Made by a program: the position numbers and the translations under genes
Notes under the pieces: generated by a model
The model's input: the letters and a program-made list of their open reading frames with translations, nothing else
The model's database searches: none
Told to the model about the DNA's origin: nothing
From: Alphaproteobacteria bacterium
GTDB taxonomy: Bacteria; Pseudomonadota; Alphaproteobacteria; RF32; CAG-239
Length of the DNA stretch: 64,000 nt
Assembly: GCA_045639065.1 (NCBI GenBank)
Contig: JAZUCK010000017.1
Location: forward strand, 5,752 to 69,751
Reading direction: 5' to 3'
In this document: positions 2,118 through 42,430 of the stretch, piece after piece
How positions within the stretch are numbered: position 1 is the stretch's first letter
Layout: every line of letters starts with the position of its first letter

Positions 2118-3791
2118 ATGGCCGTAACTGATTTAGATAAAAGATTTGATATTCATGCCATTGCTGAAACAAAGCTTGCAGAAATCGAAAAATATAAATG
2201 CAGTATTTATTGTTGCCACTCGACAGGTTGTAAATCTTCGGGCAGTGACGGAATCCTCGATTTGTTAAAAAACGTTGTTGCTGAAAAACAAGTTGAAGAT
2301 AAAGTCAGAATCGTAGCAACAGGTTGTATGGGACTTTGTGCTCAAGGACCTCTTATCAGAGTTGAAGTAAAAGGACAAAAAGATGTTTTGTTCAAACGTG
2401 TTGATTTAGAAGCCGTTCAAAACATTATGGATAAATATGTGTTGCCTTCAATCGAAAGTGATAAACCGTTAGAGGTTCCTCATGATTTGGAACAATATGT
2501 GTTGTCTTTGGAATTGCCGTTCTTTACAAAACAAGAAAAAGTTGTGTTGAAAAACGCAGGTCATATGGATCCTGAAGATATTCAAGAATATATGGCAAGA
2601 GGCGGTTATTTGGCTTTGGAAAAAGCTTTGAAAAATATGACACCGGCCCAAGTTGTTGAAGAAATTAAAAAGTCAGGCTTGAGAGGTCGTGGCGGTGGTG
2701 GTTTTTCTACCGGTATGAAATGGGAATTAGCTGCTAAGGTTCCGACTATTGATGAGAAGTTTATCATTTGTAACGGCGATGAAGGCGATCCGGGAGCTTA
2801 TATGGACCGCTCAATCTTGGAAGGTGATCCGCACGCCGTTATCGAGGGTATGATGATTGCTGCTTATGCTATCGGTGCTACAGAAGGTTGGTTCTATGTA
2901 CGTGCCGAATATCCTTTGGCAGTTGAAAGATTGGAAAAAGCTATTAAGGCTTGTAAGAAGAACAGATTGCTTGGTAACAATATTATGGGTACTGATTTTT
3001 GCTTTAATATTGATATCAGACTTGGTGCCGGTGCGTTTGTTTGTGGTGAAGAAACTGCTCTTATTCACTCTATTGAAGGTGCCAGAGGTACTCCGAGACC
3101 AAGACCTCCATATCCGACAAACAAAGGTTTGTGGGGTAAGCCGTCTTGTGTTAACAACGTTGAAACTTTGGCAAACGTATCTAAGATTTTGCTTAAAGGA
3201 GCTGATTGGTTTGCTTCTTTCGGTACCGAAACATCTAAGGGTACAAAAGTGTTTGCTTTGACCGGTCAGGTTGAGCACTCAGGTTTGATTGAAGTTCCGA
3301 TGGGAACAACAATTAACGAAATCGTTAATGAAATCGGCGGTGGTGTGCCAAACGGCAAAACATTGAAAGCCGTTCAATCAGGCGGACCTTCCGGTGGTGT
3401 GATTCCAAAAGATTATATGAATATGCCGGTATGTTATGAGGAATTGAAAAAAATCGGTTCTATCATGGGTTCGGGCGGTATGATTGTTATGGATGATACA
3501 TCAGACATGGTTTCAATCGCTAAATTCTACTTAGACTTTACCGTTGATGAATCTTGCGGAAAATGTTCTCCTTGCAGAATCGGCGGTAAACAAATGCTCA
3601 ATTTGTTGGATAAAATCAACAAAGGAAAAGGTACAAAAGCAGATTTGGAACAGTTGAAAAAAATTGCTTCGGCAATGAAAAAAGCTTCGCTTTGCGGACT
3701 TGGTCAAACAGCTCCAAACCCTGTATTGTCAACCTTGAAATTCTATGAAAAAGAATATTTAGATAAACTAGTTGATGCAGAGGAGAAATAA
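2118..3791 (+). CDS. hydB: [FeFe]-hydrogenase NuoF-like flavoprotein subunit (HydB/HndC type), NAD(H)/FMN-binding
   Basis: 557 aa. Contains an N-terminal 2Fe-2S thioredoxin-like domain (CCHSTGCKSSG...TGCMGLCAQGP), the FMN motif GRGGGGFSTGMKWE, the NADH motif GAGAFVCGEETALIHSIEG, and an N3-type 4Fe-4S site (ESCGKCSPCR...LCGLGQTAPNPV). The protein ends directly after the N3 region. Confidence 0.92.
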   Translation: MAVTDLDKRFDIHAIAETKLAEIEKYKCSIYCCHSTGCKSSGSDGILDLLKNVVAEKQVEDKVRIVATGCMGLCAQGPLIRVEVKGQKDVLFKRVDLEAVQNIMDKYVLPSIESDKPLEVPHDLEQYVLSLELPFFTKQEKVVLKNAGHMDPEDIQEYMARGGYLALEKALKNMTPAQVVEEIKKSGLRGRGGGGFSTGMKWELAAKVPTIDEKFIICNGDEGDPGAYMDRSILEGDPHAVIEGMMIAAYAIGATEGWFYVRAEYPLAVERLEKAIKACKKNRLLGNNIMGTDFCFNIDIRLGAGAFVCGEETALIHSIEGARGTPRPRPPYPTNKGLWGKPSCVNNVETLANVSKILLKGADWFASFGTETSKGTKVFALTGQVEHSGLIEVPMGTTINEIVNEIGGGVPNGKTLKAVQSGGPSGGVIPKDYMNMPVCYEELKKIGSIMGSGGMIVMDDTSDMVSIAKFYLDFTVDESCGKCSPCRIGGKQMLNLLDKINKGKGTKADLEQLKKIASAMKKASLCGLGQTAPNPVLSTLKFYEKEYLDKLVDAEEK

Positions 3792-3792
3792 T

Positions 3793-5556
3793 ATGGTTAA
3801 GCTTAAGATTGATAATATTGAAGTTGAAGTTGAAGCCGGTACCAGTATTTTGGACGCTGCGCGCAAAGCTCAAATAAATATTCCGACATTGTGTAAACAC
3901 CCTGATGTTGATCCGAGTGCAGGTTGCGGTTTGTGTATTGTTAAAGTAAACGGTCGTATTATCCGCTCTTGTTGTACTCCGGTTGCTGAGGGTATGGAAG
4001 TTATTACCAATGACAGCGAACTTAGAGAAACCAGAAAAACCGTATTGGAACTTATTTTGAGTAATCACCCTAATGATTGCTTGAAATGTGCTAGAAGCGG
4101 TCAATGCGAATTGCAAGAAATGGCTTCTCATTTGGGCGTAGATAGAGACGAGATTGAAAAGATTGTAGATGAAAGCGAATTAGATGATTCTACACAAGCC
4201 ATCGTTTTAGATCCGTCAAAATGCGTTGTTTGCGGTCGCTGTGTTGACATTTGCCAAAACGTTCAAAATGTTTGGGCTTTGAGTTATTTAAATCGTGGTT
4301 TGGCAACAAAAATTACCGGTGCTAATGACGCAAAATTGGCTGATACTCCTTGTATTAAATGCGGTCAATGTGCTGTTCACTGTCCTACCGGTGCAATTGT
4401 CGAATATGACGAAACTCAAAAAGTTTGGGATATGATTAAGGACAAAGAAACAGTTACCATAGTACAAATTGCTCCGGCCGTAAGAGTGGCTTTGGGTGAA
4501 GAATTCGGTTATGAATTCGGAGCTAATGTTACAGAAAAAATCTATGCCGCTTTGAGAAGAATTGGCTTTGATAAAGTGTTTGATACAAACTTTGGTGCTG
4601 ACTTGACAATTATTGAAGAAGCAAGCGAGTTTGTAAAACGCTTTACCAATAACGATAATTTACCGATGTTTACATCTTGCTGTCCGGCATGGGTTGATTA
4701 TATTGAAAAATATTATCCTGAACACTTGCCAAACTTGTCATCTTGTAAATCACCGCATCAAATGGTCGGTGCTTTGGCTAAGACATACTATGCACAAAAA
4801 ATGGGCTTAGATGCATCTAAGGTCAAAGTAATTTCGATTATGCCTTGTACGGCTAAAAAATGGGAAGTAAGACGTCATGAAACTATGGCTTCTTCTGGTT
4901 ACCAAGATGTTGATGTTGTTTTGACAACTCGTGAATTAGCCAAAATGATACGTCAAGCCGGTGTAAGCTTTAAGTCATTACAAGGTGAGCCTGCTGACAG
5001 TCCGTTGGGTGAATATTCCGGTGCAGCTACAATCTTTGGCGTAACCGGCGGTGTTATGACTGCAGCTTTGCGTACCGCATATTTCTACATTACAGGTAAA
5101 GAACTCGGTCAACTCAACTTTGAGGCTATCGAAGGTCTTGAGGATGTTAAAGTTGCCGAAGTTGATATTAACGGTACCAAAATCAGAATTGCCGTTGTAA
5201 ACGGTGTAGGTAATGTCGAAGAAGTTATGGAAAATATTCGTGCAGCTCAAGAAGCCGGTGAGGATTTGCCATATCACTTTATCGAAGTTATGGCTTGTCC
5301 GGGAGGTTGTATCTCGGGTGGTGGTCAACCAAAAGTTATGATGCAACATTTGGAAAAACCATGGGGTATTACCGACGAGATTAGAAAGCTTCGTTCAAAA
5401 GGCTTAAATACTGAAGATGCTCAGGCTAAAAACCGTCTTTCTCACCACAACGAATCAGTTAAGAAACTTTATGATGAGTTTCTTGGTGAAGCCGGCGGTC
5501 ATAAGTCGCACGAGTTGTTGCATACTAAGTATCGTCAGCGTAACGTCTACAAATAA
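3793..5556 (+). CDS. hydA: [FeFe]-hydrogenase catalytic subunit HydA (M3-type, with C-terminal small-subunit-like tail)
   Basis: All three H-cluster motifs are present: FTSCCPAW, MPCTAKKWE and EVMACPGGCISGGGQP. There is an N-terminal 2Fe-2S domain (MVKLKIDNIEVEV...LCKH), a His-ligated 4Fe-4S and 2x[4Fe-4S] (CVVCGRCVDIC, CIKCGQCAVHCP). I moved the start to ATG 3793, which follows the AGGAGA RBS and the hydB stop at 3789-3791. The track start at 3772 overlaps hydB. Confidence 0.95.
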   Translation: MVKLKIDNIEVEVEAGTSILDAARKAQINIPTLCKHPDVDPSAGCGLCIVKVNGRIIRSCCTPVAEGMEVITNDSELRETRKTVLELILSNHPNDCLKCARSGQCELQEMASHLGVDRDEIEKIVDESELDDSTQAIVLDPSKCVVCGRCVDICQNVQNVWALSYLNRGLATKITGANDAKLADTPCIKCGQCAVHCPTGAIVEYDETQKVWDMIKDKETVTIVQIAPAVRVALGEEFGYEFGANVTEKIYAALRRIGFDKVFDTNFGADLTIIEEASEFVKRFTNNDNLPMFTSCCPAWVDYIEKYYPEHLPNLSSCKSPHQMVGALAKTYYAQKMGLDASKVKVISIMPCTAKKWEVRRHETMASSGYQDVDVVLTTRELAKMIRQAGVSFKSLQGEPADSPLGEYSGAATIFGVTGGVMTAALRTAYFYITGKELGQLNFEAIEGLEDVKVAEVDINGTKIRIAVVNGVGNVEEVMENIRAAQEAGEDLPYHFIEVMACPGGCISGGGQPKVMMQHLEKPWGITDEIRKLRSKGLNTEDAQAKNRLSHHNESVKKLYDEFLGEAGGHKSHELLHTKYRQRNVYK

Positions 5557-6374: not shown

Positions 6375-6384
6375 CCCCCCCCCC
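6375..6384. repeat. Homopolymeric C10 tract (G10 on the minus strand) in an AT-rich intergenic region
   Basis: Read directly: tttaCCCCCCCCCCatgtcaag. Confidence 0.9.
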
Positions 6385-6543: not shown

Positions 6544-9039
6544 TTATTGCAATTTGGCGGCGATTTCTTCAATCTCATAACATTCAATAAAGTCGCCTTT
6601 TTGAATGTCATTATAATTTTCAAATGAAATACCGCACTCAAAGCCTTCTTTGACTTCTTTAACATCGTCTTTGAAGCGTTTGAGTTGTCCGATAGCGCCG
6701 TCGTGAATAACTACGTTATCACGCAACAGGCGGATTTTGGCACCGCGTTTGACCATACCTTCGGTAATCATACAACCACCAACCTTACCGACACCGGTAA
6801 TATTATAAACTTCACGAATTTCGGCATAACCGAGCAATTTTTCACGAAGTTCGGGTGAGAGCATACCTTCCAAACCTTTCTTAATGTCGTCTAATACATC
6901 GTAAATGATTGAGTAGTATTTAATCTCGACATTGTCACGACGAGCCATATCTCTGGCCTGAGCATTAGCACGAACGTTAAAGCCGATAATCAAAGCATTT
7001 GATGCTTTGGCCAAGGTAACGTCAGATTCTGAAATACCACCAACGGCAGAGTGCAAGATTTGAACCTTAACTTCGTCGTTAGAAAGTTTGGAAACAGTAC
7101 CTTCAATAGCTTCGATAGAGCCTTGAACGTCGGCTTTGATAATAATCGGCAAGTTTTTAACTTCTCCTGACTTAATCTTATCAAGCATTTGTTCCATAGC
7201 TGATTTAGCTGATTTGACCAATTTGGCTTCGCGTTCTTTGCGGATACGATATCCGGTAATTTCTTTGGCTTTGCCTTCGTCAGCAACGGCGATAATATCA
7301 TCACCGGCAGAAGGTGTTCCTTGAAGACCTAAAATCTCTACAGGAGTTGCCGGTCCGGCTTCAAATACTTTTTGACCGTGTTCGTTAAACATTGCACGAA
7401 CGTGTCCCCATTCTTTACCGGCGATAACGACATCACCAATTTTTAAGGTACCTTTTTGAACCAAAGCTGTAACAACCGTACCACGGCCTTTTTCCATTTT
7501 GGCTTCGACAACTACGCCTTCGCCGTTGCGGTTAGGATTGGCTTTGAGGTCGAGCATTTCGGCTTGGAGCAAGATAGCTTCAACCAACTTATCGATATTG
7601 ATGCGCTTTTTAGCAGAAACTTCGGCACATAAGCATTCGCCACCCATTTCTTCAACACCAATACCATGTTGCAACAATGTTGTTTTAACTTTCATCGGAT
7701 CGGCAGCCGGCAAGTCAATTTTGTTAATAGCCACTACGATAGGCACTTCGGCTGCTTGAGCGTGACGAATAGCTTCGATGGTTTGGGGCATAATACCGTC
7801 GTTAGCGGCAACAACCAGTACTACAATATCGGTAACTTTGGCACCACGAGCGCGCATTTCGGAGAATGCTTCGTGACCAGGTGTATCAATAAAGGTAATT
7901 TTATCGCCCGAAGGAACGGTAATTTGATAAGCACCGATGTGTTGGGTGATACCGCCGGCTTCACGAGCTACGACGTTAGTTTCACGAAGAGCATCAAGCA
8001 GAGATGTCTTTCCATGGTCAACGTGTCCCATAACAGTGACAACCGGAGCTCGTGCCAGTAGTGTATCTGCAGAATCATCTTGTTTGTACAAACCTTCTTC
8101 AACATCACTATCGGCAACGCGTTTGAATTTGTGACCAAATTCTTCAACAATAATTTGTGCTGTATCTGCATCAATAGGTTGGTTGATTGTTGCCATAACG
8201 CCTAATGACATAAGTTTTTTGATAACTTCCGCAGATTTTTCGGCCATACGATTGGCTAGTTCTTGAACTGTAATAATCTCAGGAATAACCACTTCTTTGA
8301 TGACTTTTTCGGTTGGTGCAACTTGAACAACCGGTTTTGGTTGTTTTTTCTTAAATCTGCGTCTCGGGCCTCCAAATCCGTAATCATCATCGTCATCATC
8401 GGTACCGATGTTATGGATACTTACTTTACCGGAACGACGTTGCGGTTCAAAAGAACGTTTGGTAATTTGTTTTTTGCGCTCTTGTTCAAAAACATCTTCT
8501 TTCGAAACAGGTTTTTTGTTGTTTGAATGACGGGTGTTTTCTTCTTCGTCATCGTCATCATCAAATGAGCGTTTTTGACGTTCTTTAAACTTATTTAAAG
8601 CACGATTTTCTGTTTCGGATTGAGCTGCAGAAATAGATTCTTGTTGAGCCTTTTGGGCCTCTTGTTTAGCTTTTTGAGCTTCTTGTTGAGCTTTTTCTTC
8701 GGCAATTCTTTTTTCTTCTTCTTCTTTTTCTTTAAGTTTTTTCAGCTCTTCTTCTTTAATTTTTTGTCTTTGAACGTTGCGCTCTTCCTCTTCCTGACGG
8801 CGCTTGTTATCAAACTCTTTGGCTTCGGCAATGAGTTTTAATTTTGCGGCTGTTTCTTCATCAATTTGTGGTTTTTGAACCTTTTGTTCAACAGCCTGAC
8901 CGATAACTCTCTTTTTTCTTACCTCAACCTGAATCATCTTTTTACCATCATTAGATGGTTTTGGGGTATTGCCCAATTTGAGTGTTAGGGTAGATTTTCC
9001 TGATAATGTTAATTTCTTTTTTGCATTATCTTCTGTCAT
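6544..9039 (-). CDS. infB: Translation initiation factor IF-2
   Basis: 831 aa. The G domain carries [22 protein letters not shown] and NKID. There is an acidic/lysine-rich N-terminal region and the conserved C-terminal domains. Confidence 0.97.
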
Positions 9040-37399: not shown

Positions 37400-39217
37400 T
37401 TACATAACTTCAGGTTTGGCACGACGGCGGGCAATCGGATCCAAAATACGTTTGCGCAAGCGCAAAGTTTTTGGGGTAACTTCCAAAAGCTCATCATCTT
37501 GGATATAAGACAAACCTTGTTCCAAAGACATTTTTCTTGGCGGAATCAAGTCGATTGCTTCATCTTTACCGGCAGCACGAATATTTGTCAGCTGTTTTGA
37601 TTTGCAAGGGTTAACTTCCAAATCGTTCGGCTTGGTGTGCTCGCCTATTATCATGCCTGTATATACAGGTACACCGGAATCGATAAACATCGGGCCTCTG
37701 TCTTGCAACTTCCACAAAGAATAAGCCACAGCATCACCGGTTTCGGAAGAAATAAGAACACCTGTGCGACGAGAGTTAATTTCGCCTTTGTATGGTTCAT
37801 AGCATTTGAACAAGCGGTTCATAACGCCTGTTCCACGTGTATCGGTCAAAAATTCGGAGTGATAACCGATAAGTCCGCGAGAAGGTGCGTTAAATATCAA
37901 ACGGCATTTGTTACCGACTTGTGATGGTATCATATCAATCATTTCGGCACGGCGTTGACCGAGTTTTTCAACTACGGCACCGGAAAATTCTTCGTCAACG
38001 TCAACAACAACTTCTTCAATCGGTTCTAAAAGCTGACCATTTTCGTCTTTTTTCATCAAAACACGAGGACGCGAAATTGATAATTCAAATCCTTCACGAC
38101 GCATTGTTTCAATCAAAACACCTAGTTGAAGTTCGCCACGACCGGCTACTTCAAAAGCATCGGAAGTATCGGTACGTGAAATTTTCAAAGCAATATTGCC
38201 TTCGGCTTCTTTGCAAAGTCTGTCCCAAATCATACGTGAAGTAACTTTGTCGCCTTCACGGCCGGATAAAGGAGAATCGTTGATTGAAAAAGTCATTGCC
38301 AAAGTCGGTGGGTCAATCGGTTGGGCTTTGATTGCCTCATTAACGTCAAAAGCACAAATAGTATCGGCAACCGTTCCTTTTACTACGCCGGCAACCGCAA
38401 TGATATCGCCGGCATGAGCGACTTCCAAGCTTTCTCGATTTAAGCCACGATAAGCCAAAATTTTACTGATACGGACACGTTCAATCTCTTTGTTTTCGCC
38501 ATTTAAAACTTTTACGGTATCATTCACATGCAAAGTACCTGATTGTACTTTACCGGTCAATAAACGTCCGATAAATTTGTCGGCTTCCAAAGTTGTGGCA
38601 AGCATAGAAAAAGGTGCATCAGGTTGGCAATCGGGTTCAGGAAAATATTCGCAAATCTTTTCAAAAAGTGGTGTTAAATCTTTTTTCTCATCTTCCAATT
38701 CATTAACAGCCCAACCGCTACGTCCCGAAGCATACAAAACCGGAAAGTCAAGTTGTTTGTCATTAGCATCTAAGCTTACAAACAAGTCAAAAACTTCGTT
38801 CAATACTTCGTCGCAACGGGCATCGGCTTTGTCGGCTTTGTTAATTACAACAATCGGACATAGTCCCAATTTTAAGGCTTTTCCGAGAACGAATTTAGTT
38901 TGGGGCATCGGACCTTCGGAAGAATCGACCAACAATACCACACCGTCAACCATTGACAATATACGTTCTACTTCGCCACCAAAGTCTGCGTGTCCGGGGG
39001 TGTCGACAATATTGATATGTGTACCTTTCCAATTTACCGAAGTACACTTTGAAAGAATGGTAATACCGCGTTCGCGTTCCAATTCATTACTATCCATAAC
39101 GCAGGTTTCAACCTGTTGGTTTTCTCTGAAAGTGCCACTTTGTTTCAAAAGTCCGTCAACCATTGTAGTCTTTCCATGGTCAACGTGGGCTATGATGGCA
39201 ATATTTCTCATATTCAT
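37400..39217 (-). CDS. typA: Translational GTPase TypA/BipA
   Basis: 605 aa. NIAIIAHVDHGKTT, DTPGHADFGGEVER, NKADK and EF-G-like domains. Confidence 0.97.
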   Translation of the reverse strand: MNMRNIAIIAHVDHGKTTMVDGLLKQSGTFRENQQVETCVMDSNELERERGITILSKCTSVNWKGTHINIVDTPGHADFGGEVERILSMVDGVVLLVDSSEGPMPQTKFVLGKALKLGLCPIVVINKADKADARCDEVLNEVFDLFVSLDANDKQLDFPVLYASGRSGWAVNELEDEKKDLTPLFEKICEYFPEPDCQPDAPFSMLATTLEADKFIGRLLTGKVQSGTLHVNDTVKVLNGENKEIERVRISKILAYRGLNRESLEVAHAGDIIAVAGVVKGTVADTICAFDVNEAIKAQPIDPPTLAMTFSINDSPLSGREGDKVTSRMIWDRLCKEAEGNIALKISRTDTSDAFEVAGRGELQLGVLIETMRREGFELSISRPRVLMKKDENGQLLEPIEEVVVDVDEEFSGAVVEKLGQRRAEMIDMIPSQVGNKCRLIFNAPSRGLIGYHSEFLTDTRGTGVMNRLFKCYEPYKGEINSRRTGVLISSETGDAVAYSLWKLQDRGPMFIDSGVPVYTGMIIGEHTKPNDLEVNPCKSKQLTNIRAAGKDEAIDLIPPRKMSLEQGLSYIQDDELLEVTPKTLRLRKRILDPIARRRAKPEVM

Positions 39218-39230
39218 CTTTTCTTTTTCT

Positions 39231-39269
39231 CCTAAAGTATCATCATGTCATAAAATGCTCACTTATGTA
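39231..39269. repeat. 39-nt perfect direct repeat, copy 1 (overlaps the typA Shine-Dalgarno region)
   Basis: cctaaagtatcatcatgtcataaaatgctcacttatgta. An identical copy lies 107 nt away. Confidence 0.9.
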
Positions 39270-39337
39270 CTCTTTATTTGTACACCGCGTTTGCATTTTA
39301 TTTCCAGCATGACACTTTATGAGAAAAAAGGTCATGC

Positions 39338-39376
39338 CCTAAAGTATCATCATGTCATAAAATGCTCACTTATGTA
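39338..39376. repeat. 39-nt perfect direct repeat, copy 2
   Basis: Identical to 39231-39269. The flanking about 65 nt are also related (tttgtacac..., ttccagcat...). Confidence 0.9.
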
Positions 39377-39879
39377 TTTATTTTTGTACACTGCAAAATT
39401 AAAATAACTTCCAGCATTTACTTTTATAAAAGAAACGCAAAAGTGACATGATATTATTTATAAAATTTTTTACAAAATACACTTATGAATTTAAATTTCA
39501 ATAAAAAACAACAATGTTTTTTCTATTTTTTAAATAAGTGCTGAGTTTATTTAAACTCATCTGGATTTTTAAGGCAACTGAAGTTATAAAAAAATCCTTT
39601 CTTCCCTTAAAATTAAGGGAAGAGAAATAATGTCATGCCCTAAACGAAGCGTCAGCAAAGTGCGGACAGGCATCTTCCGCTTTCTTATGTTACTTTTTGG
39701 TGAGCAAAAAGTAACCAAAAACTCCCGCTCAAGATGTTTTTTTATACGCTTTTTTACTCGGATGTGCCTTTCACTATCGTTGGCAGGCTTTTATCGTATA
39801 AAAGGAGAATCTCCTCGTAAAAAAGCTAAAAAACATAAATCGCGGTTCTTGATTTTTCATTTTTTTGTCTAAAAATATA

Positions 39880-39908
39880 TTTACTTAATCTTAAAAATAT
39901 GCTATTAT
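39880..39908 (+). promoter_or_regulatory. Sigma70-like promoter TTTACT-N17-TATTAT upstream of the (AC)10 leader
   Basis: Hexamers and a 17-nt spacer were read directly. No experimental support. Confidence 0.4.
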
Positions 39909-39943
39909 GATACATACATTAACGAAACCAAGGGGTTTAAGAT

Positions 39944-40027
39944 ATGTGTGAAGTAATGCGTAATATCAACAAAGTAAGAAGTGTGAAAGTGGCGGAAATC
40001 TACACACACACACACACACACATTTAA
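39944..40027 (+). CDS. Putative 27-codon leader ORF containing the (AC)10 tract (MCEVMRNINKVRSVKVAEIYTHTHTHI*)
   Basis: ATG 39944 is preceded by AAGGGG 7 nt upstream. Stop TAA is at 40025-40027. Below the length threshold of the ORF track. Coding status is uncertain. Confidence 0.3.
   Translation: MCEVMRNINKVRSVKVAEIYTHTHTHI
40002..40022. repeat. Dinucleotide microsatellite (AC)10A
   Basis: Read directly (tctACACACACACACACACACACAttt). Confirmed by the KCVCVCVCRF stretch in the antisense track ORF. Confidence 0.95.
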
Positions 40028-40061
40028 ACTCTGCAAAGCACAATATAAACGAGATGAACAT

Positions 40062-40101
40062 ACACCCAAAGGGATAATACTCCTTTGGGTGTTTTGCTTT
40101 T
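40062..40101 (+). terminator. Intrinsic terminator between the leader ORF and the 412-aa gene
   Basis: ACACCCAAAGG-gataatact-CCTTTGGGTGT: a perfect 11-bp stem followed by TTTGCTTTT. Confidence 0.7.
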
Positions 40102-40123
40102 GTACAAAACAAGGAGAAGAGAG

Positions 40124-41362
40124 ATGGGAATAGAGGATATTCTAAAAGAATTAGGTCTGAAGACAAATGATCCGGAAGAGCATTTGAGAGAATTAGCCGA
40201 TAATTGTGATTTTAAAACATATAAAAATGAATTTATGCCTGAAAAATCTGATCCTGAAAAATTTGTTGTAAAAACGGTTAAAGAAACGGGAAGCGGATAT
40301 GTCATAGATATGGATAATATGGTTATACCGGGGATAAGTTCTCCATGTTTTGTACCTAAAGAATGCGGTATTGATATGAAGGAAGGAATGTTAGTAATAC
40401 GTGATAGTGGATTTTTGGGTGTAAATTGTGCAACTACTTTTTATTCCCCTCAAGGAGAATTATTGGGAGGATATAAAGATGTTAATGGAGCCAGGGAAAT
40501 TATTAAACTAAATAAAAAAAGTGGAAAAGAATGTAATGCTACGCTAAAAGAACGGATCGCTAATAAAAAAATAAACAATAAAGTTGAATTAGCGACAGTG
40601 TGGGTAGATCCAAACGATCCTAGTAAAGGAAGAGTTCCAGTTAGTCTTTTGGATACTAGAAGCTTATTAGATAAAATAAGAGAAAGAAAAAAAGGTATAA
40701 AAGGTATAAAAGGGGATGTGGCTACGCTAAAAGAACGGATCGCTGATAAAATAAACAATGAAGGTGAATTAGCCGATAATTGTGATTTTAAACCAAATAA
40801 AAATGACAGATCCGGTGATGAACGCCAAAGCTTTGCATCATTAGTAGCAAAAATGGCTGTTGCAGAAAACAGGTCAAAAACTCCGGATGATATATTAGCT
40901 GAAGATAAACAGTGTACAGTAGGGAGAACACCTGATGATATTGCTAAGGCACATGAATCAATAGATAAAATGCCACAAGCATTAAGCCTGCTAGGCAAGG
41001 CAATGATGGATGAAGGTTTACCTGGTTTTAGGGTCGTTTCTAAACTTAAAGATATTAGAGATATTCTATCATCACAAGGTGCAGAAAGAGATTATTATAC
41101 TAAAGAAAAGGAGGCGTTTTTTGCACCTGATATGCCTGCTGTGGAATGTCTTGAGCAACTTCAGAAAGATGGCGTTTTGAATGAGAAGCTAGCTATATTG
41201 AAGCCTGAAAAATTTTTAGAGTCAAAAATAGTTACAACTGCGGCAGGACTTCATGTTGCAAATATTGATTTAAGGAATACTCCAACAATGCAAAACTATA
41301 AGAGGTTTATAAACTGTATAAGGAGCAATTCTTCATATAATAAATGGGGTAAAAAATACTAA
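40124..41362 (+). CDS. Orphan hypothetical protein (412 aa) with internal sequence duplications
   Basis: ATG 40124 follows AAGGAGAAGAGAG. Internal repeats: ELADNCDFK(T/P).KN occurs twice and ATLKERIA(N/D)K..NN occurs twice. No signal peptide, TM segment or known domain seen. Confidence 0.7.
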   Translation: MGIEDILKELGLKTNDPEEHLRELADNCDFKTYKNEFMPEKSDPEKFVVKTVKETGSGYVIDMDNMVIPGISSPCFVPKECGIDMKEGMLVIRDSGFLGVNCATTFYSPQGELLGGYKDVNGAREIIKLNKKSGKECNATLKERIANKKINNKVELATVWVDPNDPSKGRVPVSLLDTRSLLDKIRERKKGIKGIKGDVATLKERIADKINNEGELADNCDFKPNKNDRSGDERQSFASLVAKMAVAENRSKTPDDILAEDKQCTVGRTPDDIAKAHESIDKMPQALSLLGKAMMDEGLPGFRVVSKLKDIRDILSSQGAERDYYTKEKEAFFAPDMPAVECLEQLQKDGVLNEKLAILKPEKFLESKIVTTAAGLHVANIDLRNTPTMQNYKRFINCIRSNSSYNKWGKKY

Positions 41363-41365
41363 AAT

Positions 41366-41406
41366 CAAAAACCCCCGATTTGAAAAAGTCGGGGGTTTGT
41401 TTTTTT
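41366..41406. terminator. Bidirectional terminator (412-aa ORF / pfkB-family kinase)
   Basis: AAAAA-CCCCCGA-tttgaaaaag-TCGGGGG-TTTGTTTTTT. Confidence 0.8.
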
Positions 41407-42430
41407 AAGCTCGTTTGCCGTAGGATAATAACTTATTTCTGACAAAACCTCTTAGAGATATTTCAGGTCTGGCGCCATAGTGAGATATTACTTCGGCTGC
41501 GGCAATAGAACCAATCATGGCGCAAGTACCGAGCGAACGTCCTTGAGTCATACCATATAAGAAGCCTGCCGCATACAAATCACCGGCACCGGTGGTATCT
41601 ACCACATTTTCAACCACTTCGGCTTCAACAAAAGTTTTGGTGCGACCGTTTACAATAGCCGAACCTTTTTCACTACGTGTAATGGCGGCTATTTCAACAT
41701 GAGGTTTTATTAAATCAAGACATTCGAAAAAATCTTCACCCTTAAAAAGAGCCCTTATTTCGTTTTCATTGGCAAACAATATATCGACATTTTCTTTGAT
41801 AAATTCTAACAAGATATCTTCTTTGCCTTTGATACAGCTGATATCCGATAAGGTATAAGCAACTTGACGGTTGTATTTGTGGGCAATCTCAGCGGCTTTT
41901 TTGGCAATATTGATACCGTTATCATAATCTAGGATATAGCCTTCGATGTAGGTAATGCGGCTTGCTTTGATGATGTTTTCGTCAATATCTTCTTCGCTTA
42001 AATAGGTGTTGGCACCAAGATAAGTAAACATTGAACGTTGGGCATCCGGTGTAACCAATACGATTGAACGTCCGGTCATCGGGCCTTCTTTCAAGGGTTC
42101 GGTAAAAAAGTCGATACCTGCCGAACCGATATCTTTGGTAAATTCTTGTCCCAAAAAATCGTCATGAACTTTGCCTATAAAAGCAGGTGCTCCGCCAAGT
42201 GAGGCCAATCCTGCGACGGTGTTGGCTGCCGAACCTCCTGATACTTGACATTCCGGTACTATATCAGCATAAATTTTGCCGGCATCTTGGGCATTTAATA
42301 ATGTCATACAGCCTTTCGGTAAGTTGCGTTCGGTTAAGAATCGGTCGCCGACTTTGGCTAAAACGTCAACAATAGCATTGCCGATACCGACTACGTCATA
42401 ATAGGTAGCAACTTCAGTTTGTTTAATCAT
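41405..42430 (-). CDS. PfkB-family sugar/nucleoside kinase (adenosine-kinase-like)
   Basis: 341 aa. GGSAANTV and DTTGAGDLYAAGFLYG motifs. Confidence 0.85.
   Translation of the reverse strand: MIKQTEVATYYDVVGIGNAIVDVLAKVGDRFLTERNLPKGCMTLLNAQDAGKIYADIVPECQVSGGSAANTVAGLASLGGAPAFIGKVHDDFLGQEFTKDIGSAGIDFFTEPLKEGPMTGRSIVLVTPDAQRSMFTYLGANTYLSEEDIDENIIKASRITYIEGYILDYDNGINIAKKAAEIAHKYNRQVAYTLSDISCIKGKEDILLEFIKENVDILFANENEIRALFKGEDFFECLDLIKPHVEIAAITRSEKGSAIVNGRTKTFVEAEVVENVVDTTGAGDLYAAGFLYGMTQGRSLGTCAMIGSIAAAEVISHYGARPEISLRGFVRNKLLSYGKRA

Follow-up and report, generated by a model that had tools for sequence, protein, structure and literature searches.

An AC-repeat leader cassette in uncultured Alphaproteobacteria as a candidate phase-variable transcription attenuator

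The leader cassette, its AC tract and the gene behind it

We analyzed a 64,000-nt stretch of DNA, hereafter the window, from an uncultured member of the Alphaproteobacteria (assembly GCA_045639065.1, contig JAZUCK010000017.1, positions 5,752 to 69,751). A dinucleotide repeat, (AC)n, is situated there inside a short leader open reading frame (ORF) upstream of a gene for a 412-aa orphan protein. Promoter, leader ORF, AC tract, terminator and ribosome binding site (RBS) together make up a cassette of 270 nt (39853–40123; coordinates are those of the window and of its forward strand unless stated otherwise). The cassette was delineated with an nhmmer profile built from eight cassette copies (E = 3e-80), and only a single copy was found by this profile in the window. 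The analysis described below suggests a stochastic switch: changes in repeat number would shift the frame of leader translation and thereby decide whether transcription passes the terminator.

The consensus promoter scan predicted a sigma-70-type promoter at 39880–39908 (−35 TTTACT, 17-nt spacer, extended −10 TGcTATTAT), which would place the transcription start near 39915. A Shine–Dalgarno sequence AAGGGG (39930–39935) lies 8 nt 5′ of the leader ATG at 39944; the leader ORF of the present allele (39944–40027), in the early-stop frame, encodes 27 aa, MCEVMRNINKVRSVKVAEIYTHTHTHI, followed by a stop. Within it Tandem Repeats Finder (TRF) delimited a simple-sequence repeat (SSR), (AC)10.5, at 40002–40022, which is 100% pure and is always read as (Thr-His)n. 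A predicted intrinsic terminator occupies 40062–40102, as found by consensus scan, inverted-repeat search and folding; its stem (40062–40072 and 40082–40092) is an 11-bp perfect inverted repeat with a G-U closing pair, followed by TTTGCTTTTG in the T-rich tail (40093–40102), and the hairpin folds with dG −18.6 kcal/mol (z = −4.1). Next come a second Shine–Dalgarno sequence, AAGGAGA (40111–40117), and the ATG (40124) of the putative regulated gene (40124–41362). This ATG is only 31 nt beyond the hairpin end (40092), a distance too short to accommodate a separate promoter for the main gene. A first-pass annotation of the window, made by reading the sequence, had proposed this promoter, both RBSs, the leader ORF, the tract and the terminator; each of them was confirmed at its stated position.

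The tract had also been called very unusual in length. We simulated the window 200 times under a first-order Markov model; the longest dinucleotide run had a mean length of 4.4 units and reached 7 at most. The observed tract surpasses this maximum and is the sole dinucleotide tract of >5 units in the 64 kb.

In-silico re-translation of alleles with n from 7 to 13 reproduced the three repeat states that the first-pass annotation had worked out. With n = 10, 7 or 13 (n = 1 mod 3) the leader stops at the TAA at 40025–40027, provided by a heptamer TTTAAAC (40023–40029) that sequence comparison located directly 3′ of the tract; in the present n = 10 allele this stop precedes the hairpin by 34 nt. 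Alleles with n = 9 or 12 (n = 0 mod 3) end at the TAA at 40075–40077, in the hairpin loop, and with n = 11 or 8 (n = 2 mod 3) the frame of the window copy is open as far as the TAG at 40131–40133, which overlaps the start of the main ORF.

The 412-aa protein and seven other proteins encoded behind cassettes gave nothing above curated thresholds in searches of Pfam, PADLOC and PHROGs. Among 5.8e9 proteins there were only two clusters of full-length homologues of the 412-aa protein (72–74% identity), one of them annotated as coming from an Alphaproteobacteria metagenome-assembled genome (MAG). In an exhaustive HMMER search all other matching proteins shared only an N-terminal module (residues ~19–135) or a C-terminal one (~250–405); since the two modules are shared separately, we consider the protein a mosaic. 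It contains internal duplications (ATLKERIA..INN twice, ELADNCDFK twice, and KGIKGIKG, which originates from a 9-nt tandem repeat at 40690–40713), and its orthologues, 393–426 aa long, differ in repeat content. The earlier description of an orphan with internal duplications was thus accurate. An AlphaFold2 model from a three-sequence alignment (predicted local distance difference test, pLDDT, 41.7; predicted template modelling score, pTM, 0.30) was too poor for a fold search.

The tract is hypermutable in relatives. Orthologues of the window gene have n = 3 (locus L001), 10 (window) and 14 (L008, 94% nucleotide identity), and a frame-blind search over distinct loci gave n = 3, 9 (interrupted), 10, 11, 14, 14, 15 and 16, with all three frames present. 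In a sister species a paralogous cassette precedes a gene for a 445-aa protein (P0056; L002); in ten samples of this locus we saw n = 16 seven times, n = 17 twice and n = 18 once, while 200 nt 5′ and 398 nt 3′ of the tract had no mismatches in any of the ten. With the n = 16 locus L022 as reference, L026 differed by a single 2-nt gap in the tract over 4338 nt and L031 by a single 4-nt gap in the tract over 3978 nt, with no other difference. A short n = 3 tract of the same sister species, situated before the gene for P0002, was invariant in 6/6 contigs read; as the long tract varies and the short one is constant, we attribute the variation to slipped-strand changes at the long repeat. The natural alleles n = 16, 17 and 18 put the leader stop at −37, −27 and +13, respectively, relative to the hairpin start. 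Comparison of tract length across relatives had been set beforehand as a test of the switch, and the tract was not invariant, either among orthologues or in the paralogous cassette.

Could such differences arise from assembly or sequencing stutter, or is the tract a neutral microsatellite carried along by a repeated promoter element, in either case with no regulatory consequence? Dinucleotide repeats can stutter in PCR-based libraries, and many contigs break at the cassette; many short contigs indeed end at its borders, as expected for a repeat. However, tracts of 20–37 nt are well inside typical short-read lengths, and independent assemblies show discrete lengths with perfect flanks. In addition, the tract and its flanks, TCTAC...ATTTAAAC, have been kept across deep divergence of the remaining leader, a retention that points to selection on the tract. 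We therefore give this explanation very little credence.

In L022–L031 we also observed, at ~668–942, a tandem repeat of ~130 nt upstream of the cassette with a copy number that varies between samples; L024 and L029 each have one unit more than L022.

A dispersed cassette with a conserved leader frame

Further cassette copies were collected by running a pattern with a variable gap over the tract on metagenome and genome collections. Judged by these sequences, the window arrangement is not unique; it is one instance of a multi-copy portable cassette. Paralogous and orthologous copies are 70–96% identical in pairwise comparison, and the cassette recurs ahead of unrelated orphan genes in related Alphaproteobacteria MAGs. 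In every inspected locus it stands directly 5′ of a co-oriented gene, mostly a single orphan gene between housekeeping genes; in L032 it heads a glycosyltransferase operon. L002 has two copies 2 kb apart, and one MAG carries two on separate contigs.

The −35 element, spacer and TGn −10 of the promoter are identical in every copy, including the most distant one, L040, and the leader Shine–Dalgarno sequence is kept as AAGGG(T/G) in paralogues. At the orthologous locus of a relative (L001–L005) promoter, RBS, leader ORF, hairpin and main RBS are preserved nearly base for base; the tract is just ACACACA there, and the leader of 39 aa ends with a TAA in the hairpin loop.

At fixed chromosomal sites, one gene has been exchanged for another behind the cassette. 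At the typA site the window (39853–41399) and L012 (7152–8000) have different genes behind the cassette, even though L012 is syntenic with the window across murJ–typA at ~80% nucleotide identity; the same is seen at the fliE site on comparing L001 with L035 (1400–2740). The window gene itself is at the typA site, while its orthologues in L001, L006 and L008 are at the fliE site. Distant members of the family precede Glyco_transf_11 and Glycos_transf_2 genes. Genes of these two families are classical phase-variable targets, and their presence behind distant cassettes fits the usual targets of phase variation; the window protein, on the other hand, has no family match.

We considered whether the cassette is phage-borne. 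A relaxed tract pattern gave four matches in the viral_contigs collection, all of them chance matches inside phage coding sequence with a gap other than AC, so the cassette is not evidently carried by phages. Among known RNA families, Rfam at the gathering threshold found nothing but two tRNAs in the whole window, and at a permissive threshold the region 39200–40200 gave only sub-threshold chance matches (SurC, 29.5 bits versus a threshold of 80; ssNA-helicase; SAM-II).

At the peptide level the single 39-aa leader was too short to serve as a protein query; a profile was made instead from a five-row alignment (A1), rows 4 and 5 of which are the hypothetical in-frame leaders of the window and of L010. 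More than 40 clusters of called leader peptides matched MCEIMRNI....SVKVAEIY(TH)kLNSAKHNINEINxHPKG, with k = 1–5 or with interrupted tracts. Such conservation outside the tract would be expected if the leader were a small-protein gene with a terminator of its own, producing a functional (Thr-His)n peptide of 39–49 aa and leaving the downstream gene unregulated; synonymous changes at two of the five variable post-tract positions are also in line with it. Yet the cassette always stands directly 5′ of a co-oriented gene that has an RBS and lacks promoter room. Unbiased samples contain out-of-frame alleles as often as in-frame ones, and the distance between stop and hairpin is conserved also in members whose peptide tail is not. 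A small protein as the sole product of the leader is, in our estimate, very unlikely.

The three exit frames differ in conservation. Only the frame used at n = 0 mod 3 is conserved as an ORF, and it always leads the ribosome into or past the hairpin position. Its stop is 13–15 nt into the hairpin (loop codon 1 or 2) in seven in-frame copies from five distinct cassettes, a figure that covers two closely related hairpin types. One of these, present in L018 and L041, has a stem longer by one A-U pair and uses TAG, not TAA, as the stop at the same relative position. At n = 1 mod 3 the heptamer TTTAAAC, identical in all family members, including L032, L034 and L040, gives an immediate TAA. For the n = 2 mod 3 frame, the first-pass annotation had stated that one additional unit leads to read-through of the terminator; this is true of the window copy and fails as a family trait, as most close paralogues stop early in this frame, at TGC TAA. 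Two substitutions opened it in the window, GCT→GCA (synonymous in the conserved frame) and ATT→ATG.

Programmed −1 frameshifting at this heptamer was considered too: read as T_TTA_AAC in the conserved leader frame (40023–40029), it is phased like a canonical −1 slippery site. At the usual distance of 5–9 nt 3′ of it a stimulatory structure is missing, the hairpin beginning 32 nt after the heptamer, and we leave the phasing as an observation.

Hairpins of different sequence occupy the equivalent place in L018, L034, L032 and L040. L034 has a new 16-bp hairpin whose 3′ arm contains the end of the conserved frame; in L032 and L040 this frame passes through the new hairpins and ends 3 nt and 21 nt, respectively, before the main ATG. 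The hairpin has been lost in L014, where the leader ends one nucleotide short of the main ATG (TAAgATG). Distant members differ in leader N-terminus and hairpin sequence; what persists is the tract with its flanks, the layout and, in L040, the promoter hexamers. Leader–terminator geometry that is kept across the family, even when the hairpin is replaced, points to function.

The members in which the leader stop comes close to the main ATG raise the question of whether the hypermutable switch acts after transcription, by delivering ribosomes to the main start (coupling or re-initiation) or by stabilizing mRNA, with the hairpin a minor or leaky terminator. L014 (1 nt between stop and ATG) and L032 would agree with this, and so would the n = 2 mod 3 frame of the window, which ends over the main start. 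In most copies, however, the conserved frame stops 42–55 nt before the main ATG, in the hairpin, which is too far for classical coupling, and a strong hairpin with a T tail has been kept in place with replaced sequences. Moreover, at the pil1 locus of Streptococcus gallolyticus, a system of the same architecture, deletion of the terminator locked expression ON (PMC3894217). Post-transcriptional action thus seems unlikely to us as the basis of the switch; in the terminator-less members such coupling may be dominant.

Proposed attenuation dependent on repeat number

With attenuation as the working model, the following course of events is proposed. Transcription would start near 39915 and translation of the leader at 39944, with the tract read as Thr-His repeats; the number of AC units would decide the frame in which the ribosome exits the tract. 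If n is divisible by 3, the ribosome should pass through the conserved tail LNSAKHNINEMNIHPKG and stop at the TAA at 40075–40077 in the terminator loop. A ribosome at this stop is expected to cover the 5′ stem arm and, with a typical reach of 12–15 nt beyond the A site, the greater part or the whole of the 3′ arm; following close behind RNA polymerase, it would prevent the hairpin from forming and allow read-through into the 412-aa gene (ON). At n = 1 mod 3, as in the window, the immediate TAA would leave the terminator free to fold, and most transcripts would end at ~40095–40102 (OFF or low). At n = 2 mod 3 the window copy, whose frame is open through the terminator and the RBS to the TAG at 40131–40133, is predicted to be ON, and most paralogues, which stop early in this frame, are predicted to be OFF. 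Throughout the family a leader stop 27–37 nt upstream of the hairpin would let the terminator form. The window allele, with 34 nt between its stop and the hairpin, is accordingly predicted to be OFF or low, and ON is predicted for n = 9 or 12 and, in the window copy, for n = 11.

We thus interpret the AC tract as a slipped-strand hypermutable repeat in a leader ORF that acts as a stochastic three-state switch on a transcription attenuator, and put the probability of this interpretation at roughly 70%. Phase-variable attenuation had already been suggested by the first-pass annotation; the variable tract, the conserved geometry and the pil1 precedent now speak for it, as a prediction from sequence and analogy. 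The anatomy of the cassette, the frame arithmetic, the hypervariability in relatives and the conservation of geometry are observations. Promoter use, leader translation and termination are predicted steps, and the assignment of ON and OFF follows the analogy to pil1.

The precedent is provided by the pil1 and pil3 loci of S. gallolyticus, where GCAGA repeats in a leader peptide form a phase-variable attenuator (Danne et al. 2014, PLoS Pathog, PMC3894217). In pil1 expression is low when the leader stops 39 bp upstream of the hairpin and high when it stops inside or past it (PMC3894217). The order of elements is the same as in the cassette: promoter, translated leader ORF containing a repeat with a unit length not a multiple of 3, intrinsic terminator, structural gene. 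In both systems gain or loss of repeats shifts the leader stop from ~35–39 nt upstream of the hairpin (low) to a position within or beyond it (high), and in both more than one locus per genome carries the device. The window has a predicted promoter, a leader ORF with its RBS, an uninterrupted AC repeat and a predicted terminator, with no separate promoter for the main gene, and in-silico changes of its repeat number shift the leader stop from a site far 5′ of the hairpin into it or past it; polymorphism among otherwise identical genomes was found in the paralogous cassette of the sister species, and tract length also differs between orthologues.

Several differences separate the two systems. 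The repeat is a dinucleotide, AC, rather than the pentanucleotide GCAGA, the sequences are unrelated, and the host is a Gram-negative, uncultured alphaproteobacterium rather than a Firmicute. The cassette keeps one exit frame with a conserved peptide tail and a stop precisely in the loop, whereas the short frame prevails in pil1 and its two out-of-frame states yield long leaders. It is a dispersed unit of 270 nt placed before many unrelated single genes, with replacement of the gene behind it, and some of its members lack the terminator and are directly coupled. Finally, pil1 has been proven genetically, while the function of the cassette is a prediction.

Other known switches share parts of this logic. 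In Helicobacter pylori, CT/AG repeats in the 5′ coding regions of genes for outer-membrane proteins and fucosyltransferases are classical SSR contingency loci; slipped-strand change of a dinucleotide, an ON state in one of three frames and glycosyltransferase or host-interaction targets are common to both, but there the repeat is in the structural gene and truncates the protein, while the cassette repeat is in an upstream ORF and leaves the structural gene intact. At the pyrBI and pyrE attenuators of Escherichia coli, termination is suppressed when an upstream ORF is translated to or through the terminator hairpin, and the rph-1 frameshift affects pyrE; downstream expression falls if a frameshift makes the upstream ORF end early, as predicted here. 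These attenuators, unlike the cassette, sense UTP via polymerase pausing, and the frameshift is a fixed laboratory one, with no hypermutable repeat or stochastic switching. The invertible switch of Clostridioides difficile cwpV, operated by a recombinase through site-specific DNA inversion, is again phase variation after initiation, in which a leader terminator is made or removed; it differs in having neither repeat slippage nor leader translation.

Amino-acid-sensing attenuators of the trp/his/thr type were considered as well and rejected: the terminator is intact in both minimum free energy and centroid folds, with no competing pairing of its 5′ arm, and the leaders contain Thr-His runs, yet the genes that follow are orphans or encode glycosyltransferases rather than biosynthetic enzymes.

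Some observations weigh against repeat-dependent attenuation or narrow what can be drawn in its favour. The window protein was found on one contig only, and the polymorphism described above is that of the paralogous cassette and of orthologues; a look-up of further contigs carrying the window protein or P0008 returned none on record. The n = 2 mod 3 stop is not fixed relative to the hairpin start: L010 and L026 have it at −27, L009 has it at −4, and the window copy reads through. A codon-position test for selection at the peptide level, with five variable columns, three of them at third positions, was underpowered. The peptide search favours long, in-frame leaders, and because of this bias the apparent excess of in-frame and of interrupted, 'locked' alleles is unusable as evidence. 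Anti-termination also needs tight coupling between ribosome and polymerase. A further point concerns the RNA itself: in predicted folds the AC tract pairs with the AUGUGUG of the leader start (39944–39952) and with an internal GUGUG (39975–39985), and a longer tract is able to pair with both at once.

The last point is what one would expect if the tract acted at the RNA level, either as a CA-rich single-stranded enhancer or regulator site or through pairing with the GUGUG motifs (leader start and ~39977), so that length rather than frame tunes expression; both motifs are conserved in the close family. L032, L034 and L040, however, keep tract, heptamer and hairpin geometry with other leader starts that lack GUGUG motifs, and the conserved frame with its stop in the hairpin is left unexplained. 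We see RNA-level action in place of a frame switch as highly improbable; the folds do leave room for some contribution of tract pairing alongside the frame switch.

One system with this kind of mechanism was known before; new here are the dinucleotide repeat, the Gram-negative host, the conserved in-frame leader with its stop in the loop and the dispersed, portable cassette. Phase variation by a leader-peptide repeat and a terminator has so far been demonstrated once, at two pilus loci of one Gram-positive species, and our literature searches gave no example besides pil1/pil3 and no report of AC-repeat leaders. Its recurrence in a Gram-negative lineage that is unrelated, with alleles in all three frames, suggests a general and evolvable way to place intact genes under stochastic control. 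Orphan genes of uncultured Alphaproteobacteria would thereby be flagged as contingency genes, a first functional handle on them. For annotation, a repeat in an intergenic upstream ORF can be a switch that phase-variation scans of coding regions miss.

One could speculate further that the cassette is a recombination-portable phase-variation module, which in a clade of uncultured Alphaproteobacteria stands before glycosyltransferase genes and dozens of unrelated orphan genes (whose products are candidates for secretion or for interaction with a host), such that each cell expresses a random combination and genes are swapped at fixed sites, and that, in addition, the leader tail (...NINEINxHPKG, with the stop in the loop) is itself active, for instance as a ribosome-arresting peptide that holds the terminator open. 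Taken as a whole, this extension is doubtful, and we offer it tentatively.

Surroundings of the cassette and other observations

An accessory conserved block with a REP-like (repetitive extragenic palindromic) hairpin and a palindrome, identified by sequence comparison, lies at 39627–39852, just upstream of the cassette. It is 82–93% identical to blocks 5′ of the cassettes in L001, L002, L010 and L011, is absent in L009, L012 and L013, and is also present 3′ of the 445-aa gene in L022. Its perfect 11-bp palindrome, GTTACTTTTTG/CAAAAAGTAAC, at 39689–39715, is one base shorter per arm in L001. No copies of the REP-like pattern GTCATKCC...GGMATGAC were found in a search of the window.

A terminator located by consensus scan at 41369–41398 closes the single-gene unit behind the cassette; it is 100% identical to the one 3′ of the L001 orthologue, and both its arms are changed in L008. 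The flanking genes are typA (37400–39217, reverse strand), a pfkB-family kinase gene (41405–42430, reverse strand) and htpG.

The only other long simple repeat in the window, which comes from a low-GC (37%) genome, is a C10 homopolymer at 6375–6384. It is situated within a non-coding stretch of ~1 kb between a hydrogenase-like ORF (3772–5556) and infB (6544–9039, reverse strand) and could be a second hypermutable site.

A non-coding block upstream of typA, at 39370–39549, had no Rfam match; it is 97.8% identical to L012 6885–7064, compared with 80.7% for the typA coding sequence, and may be a conserved 5′ leader or a small RNA.

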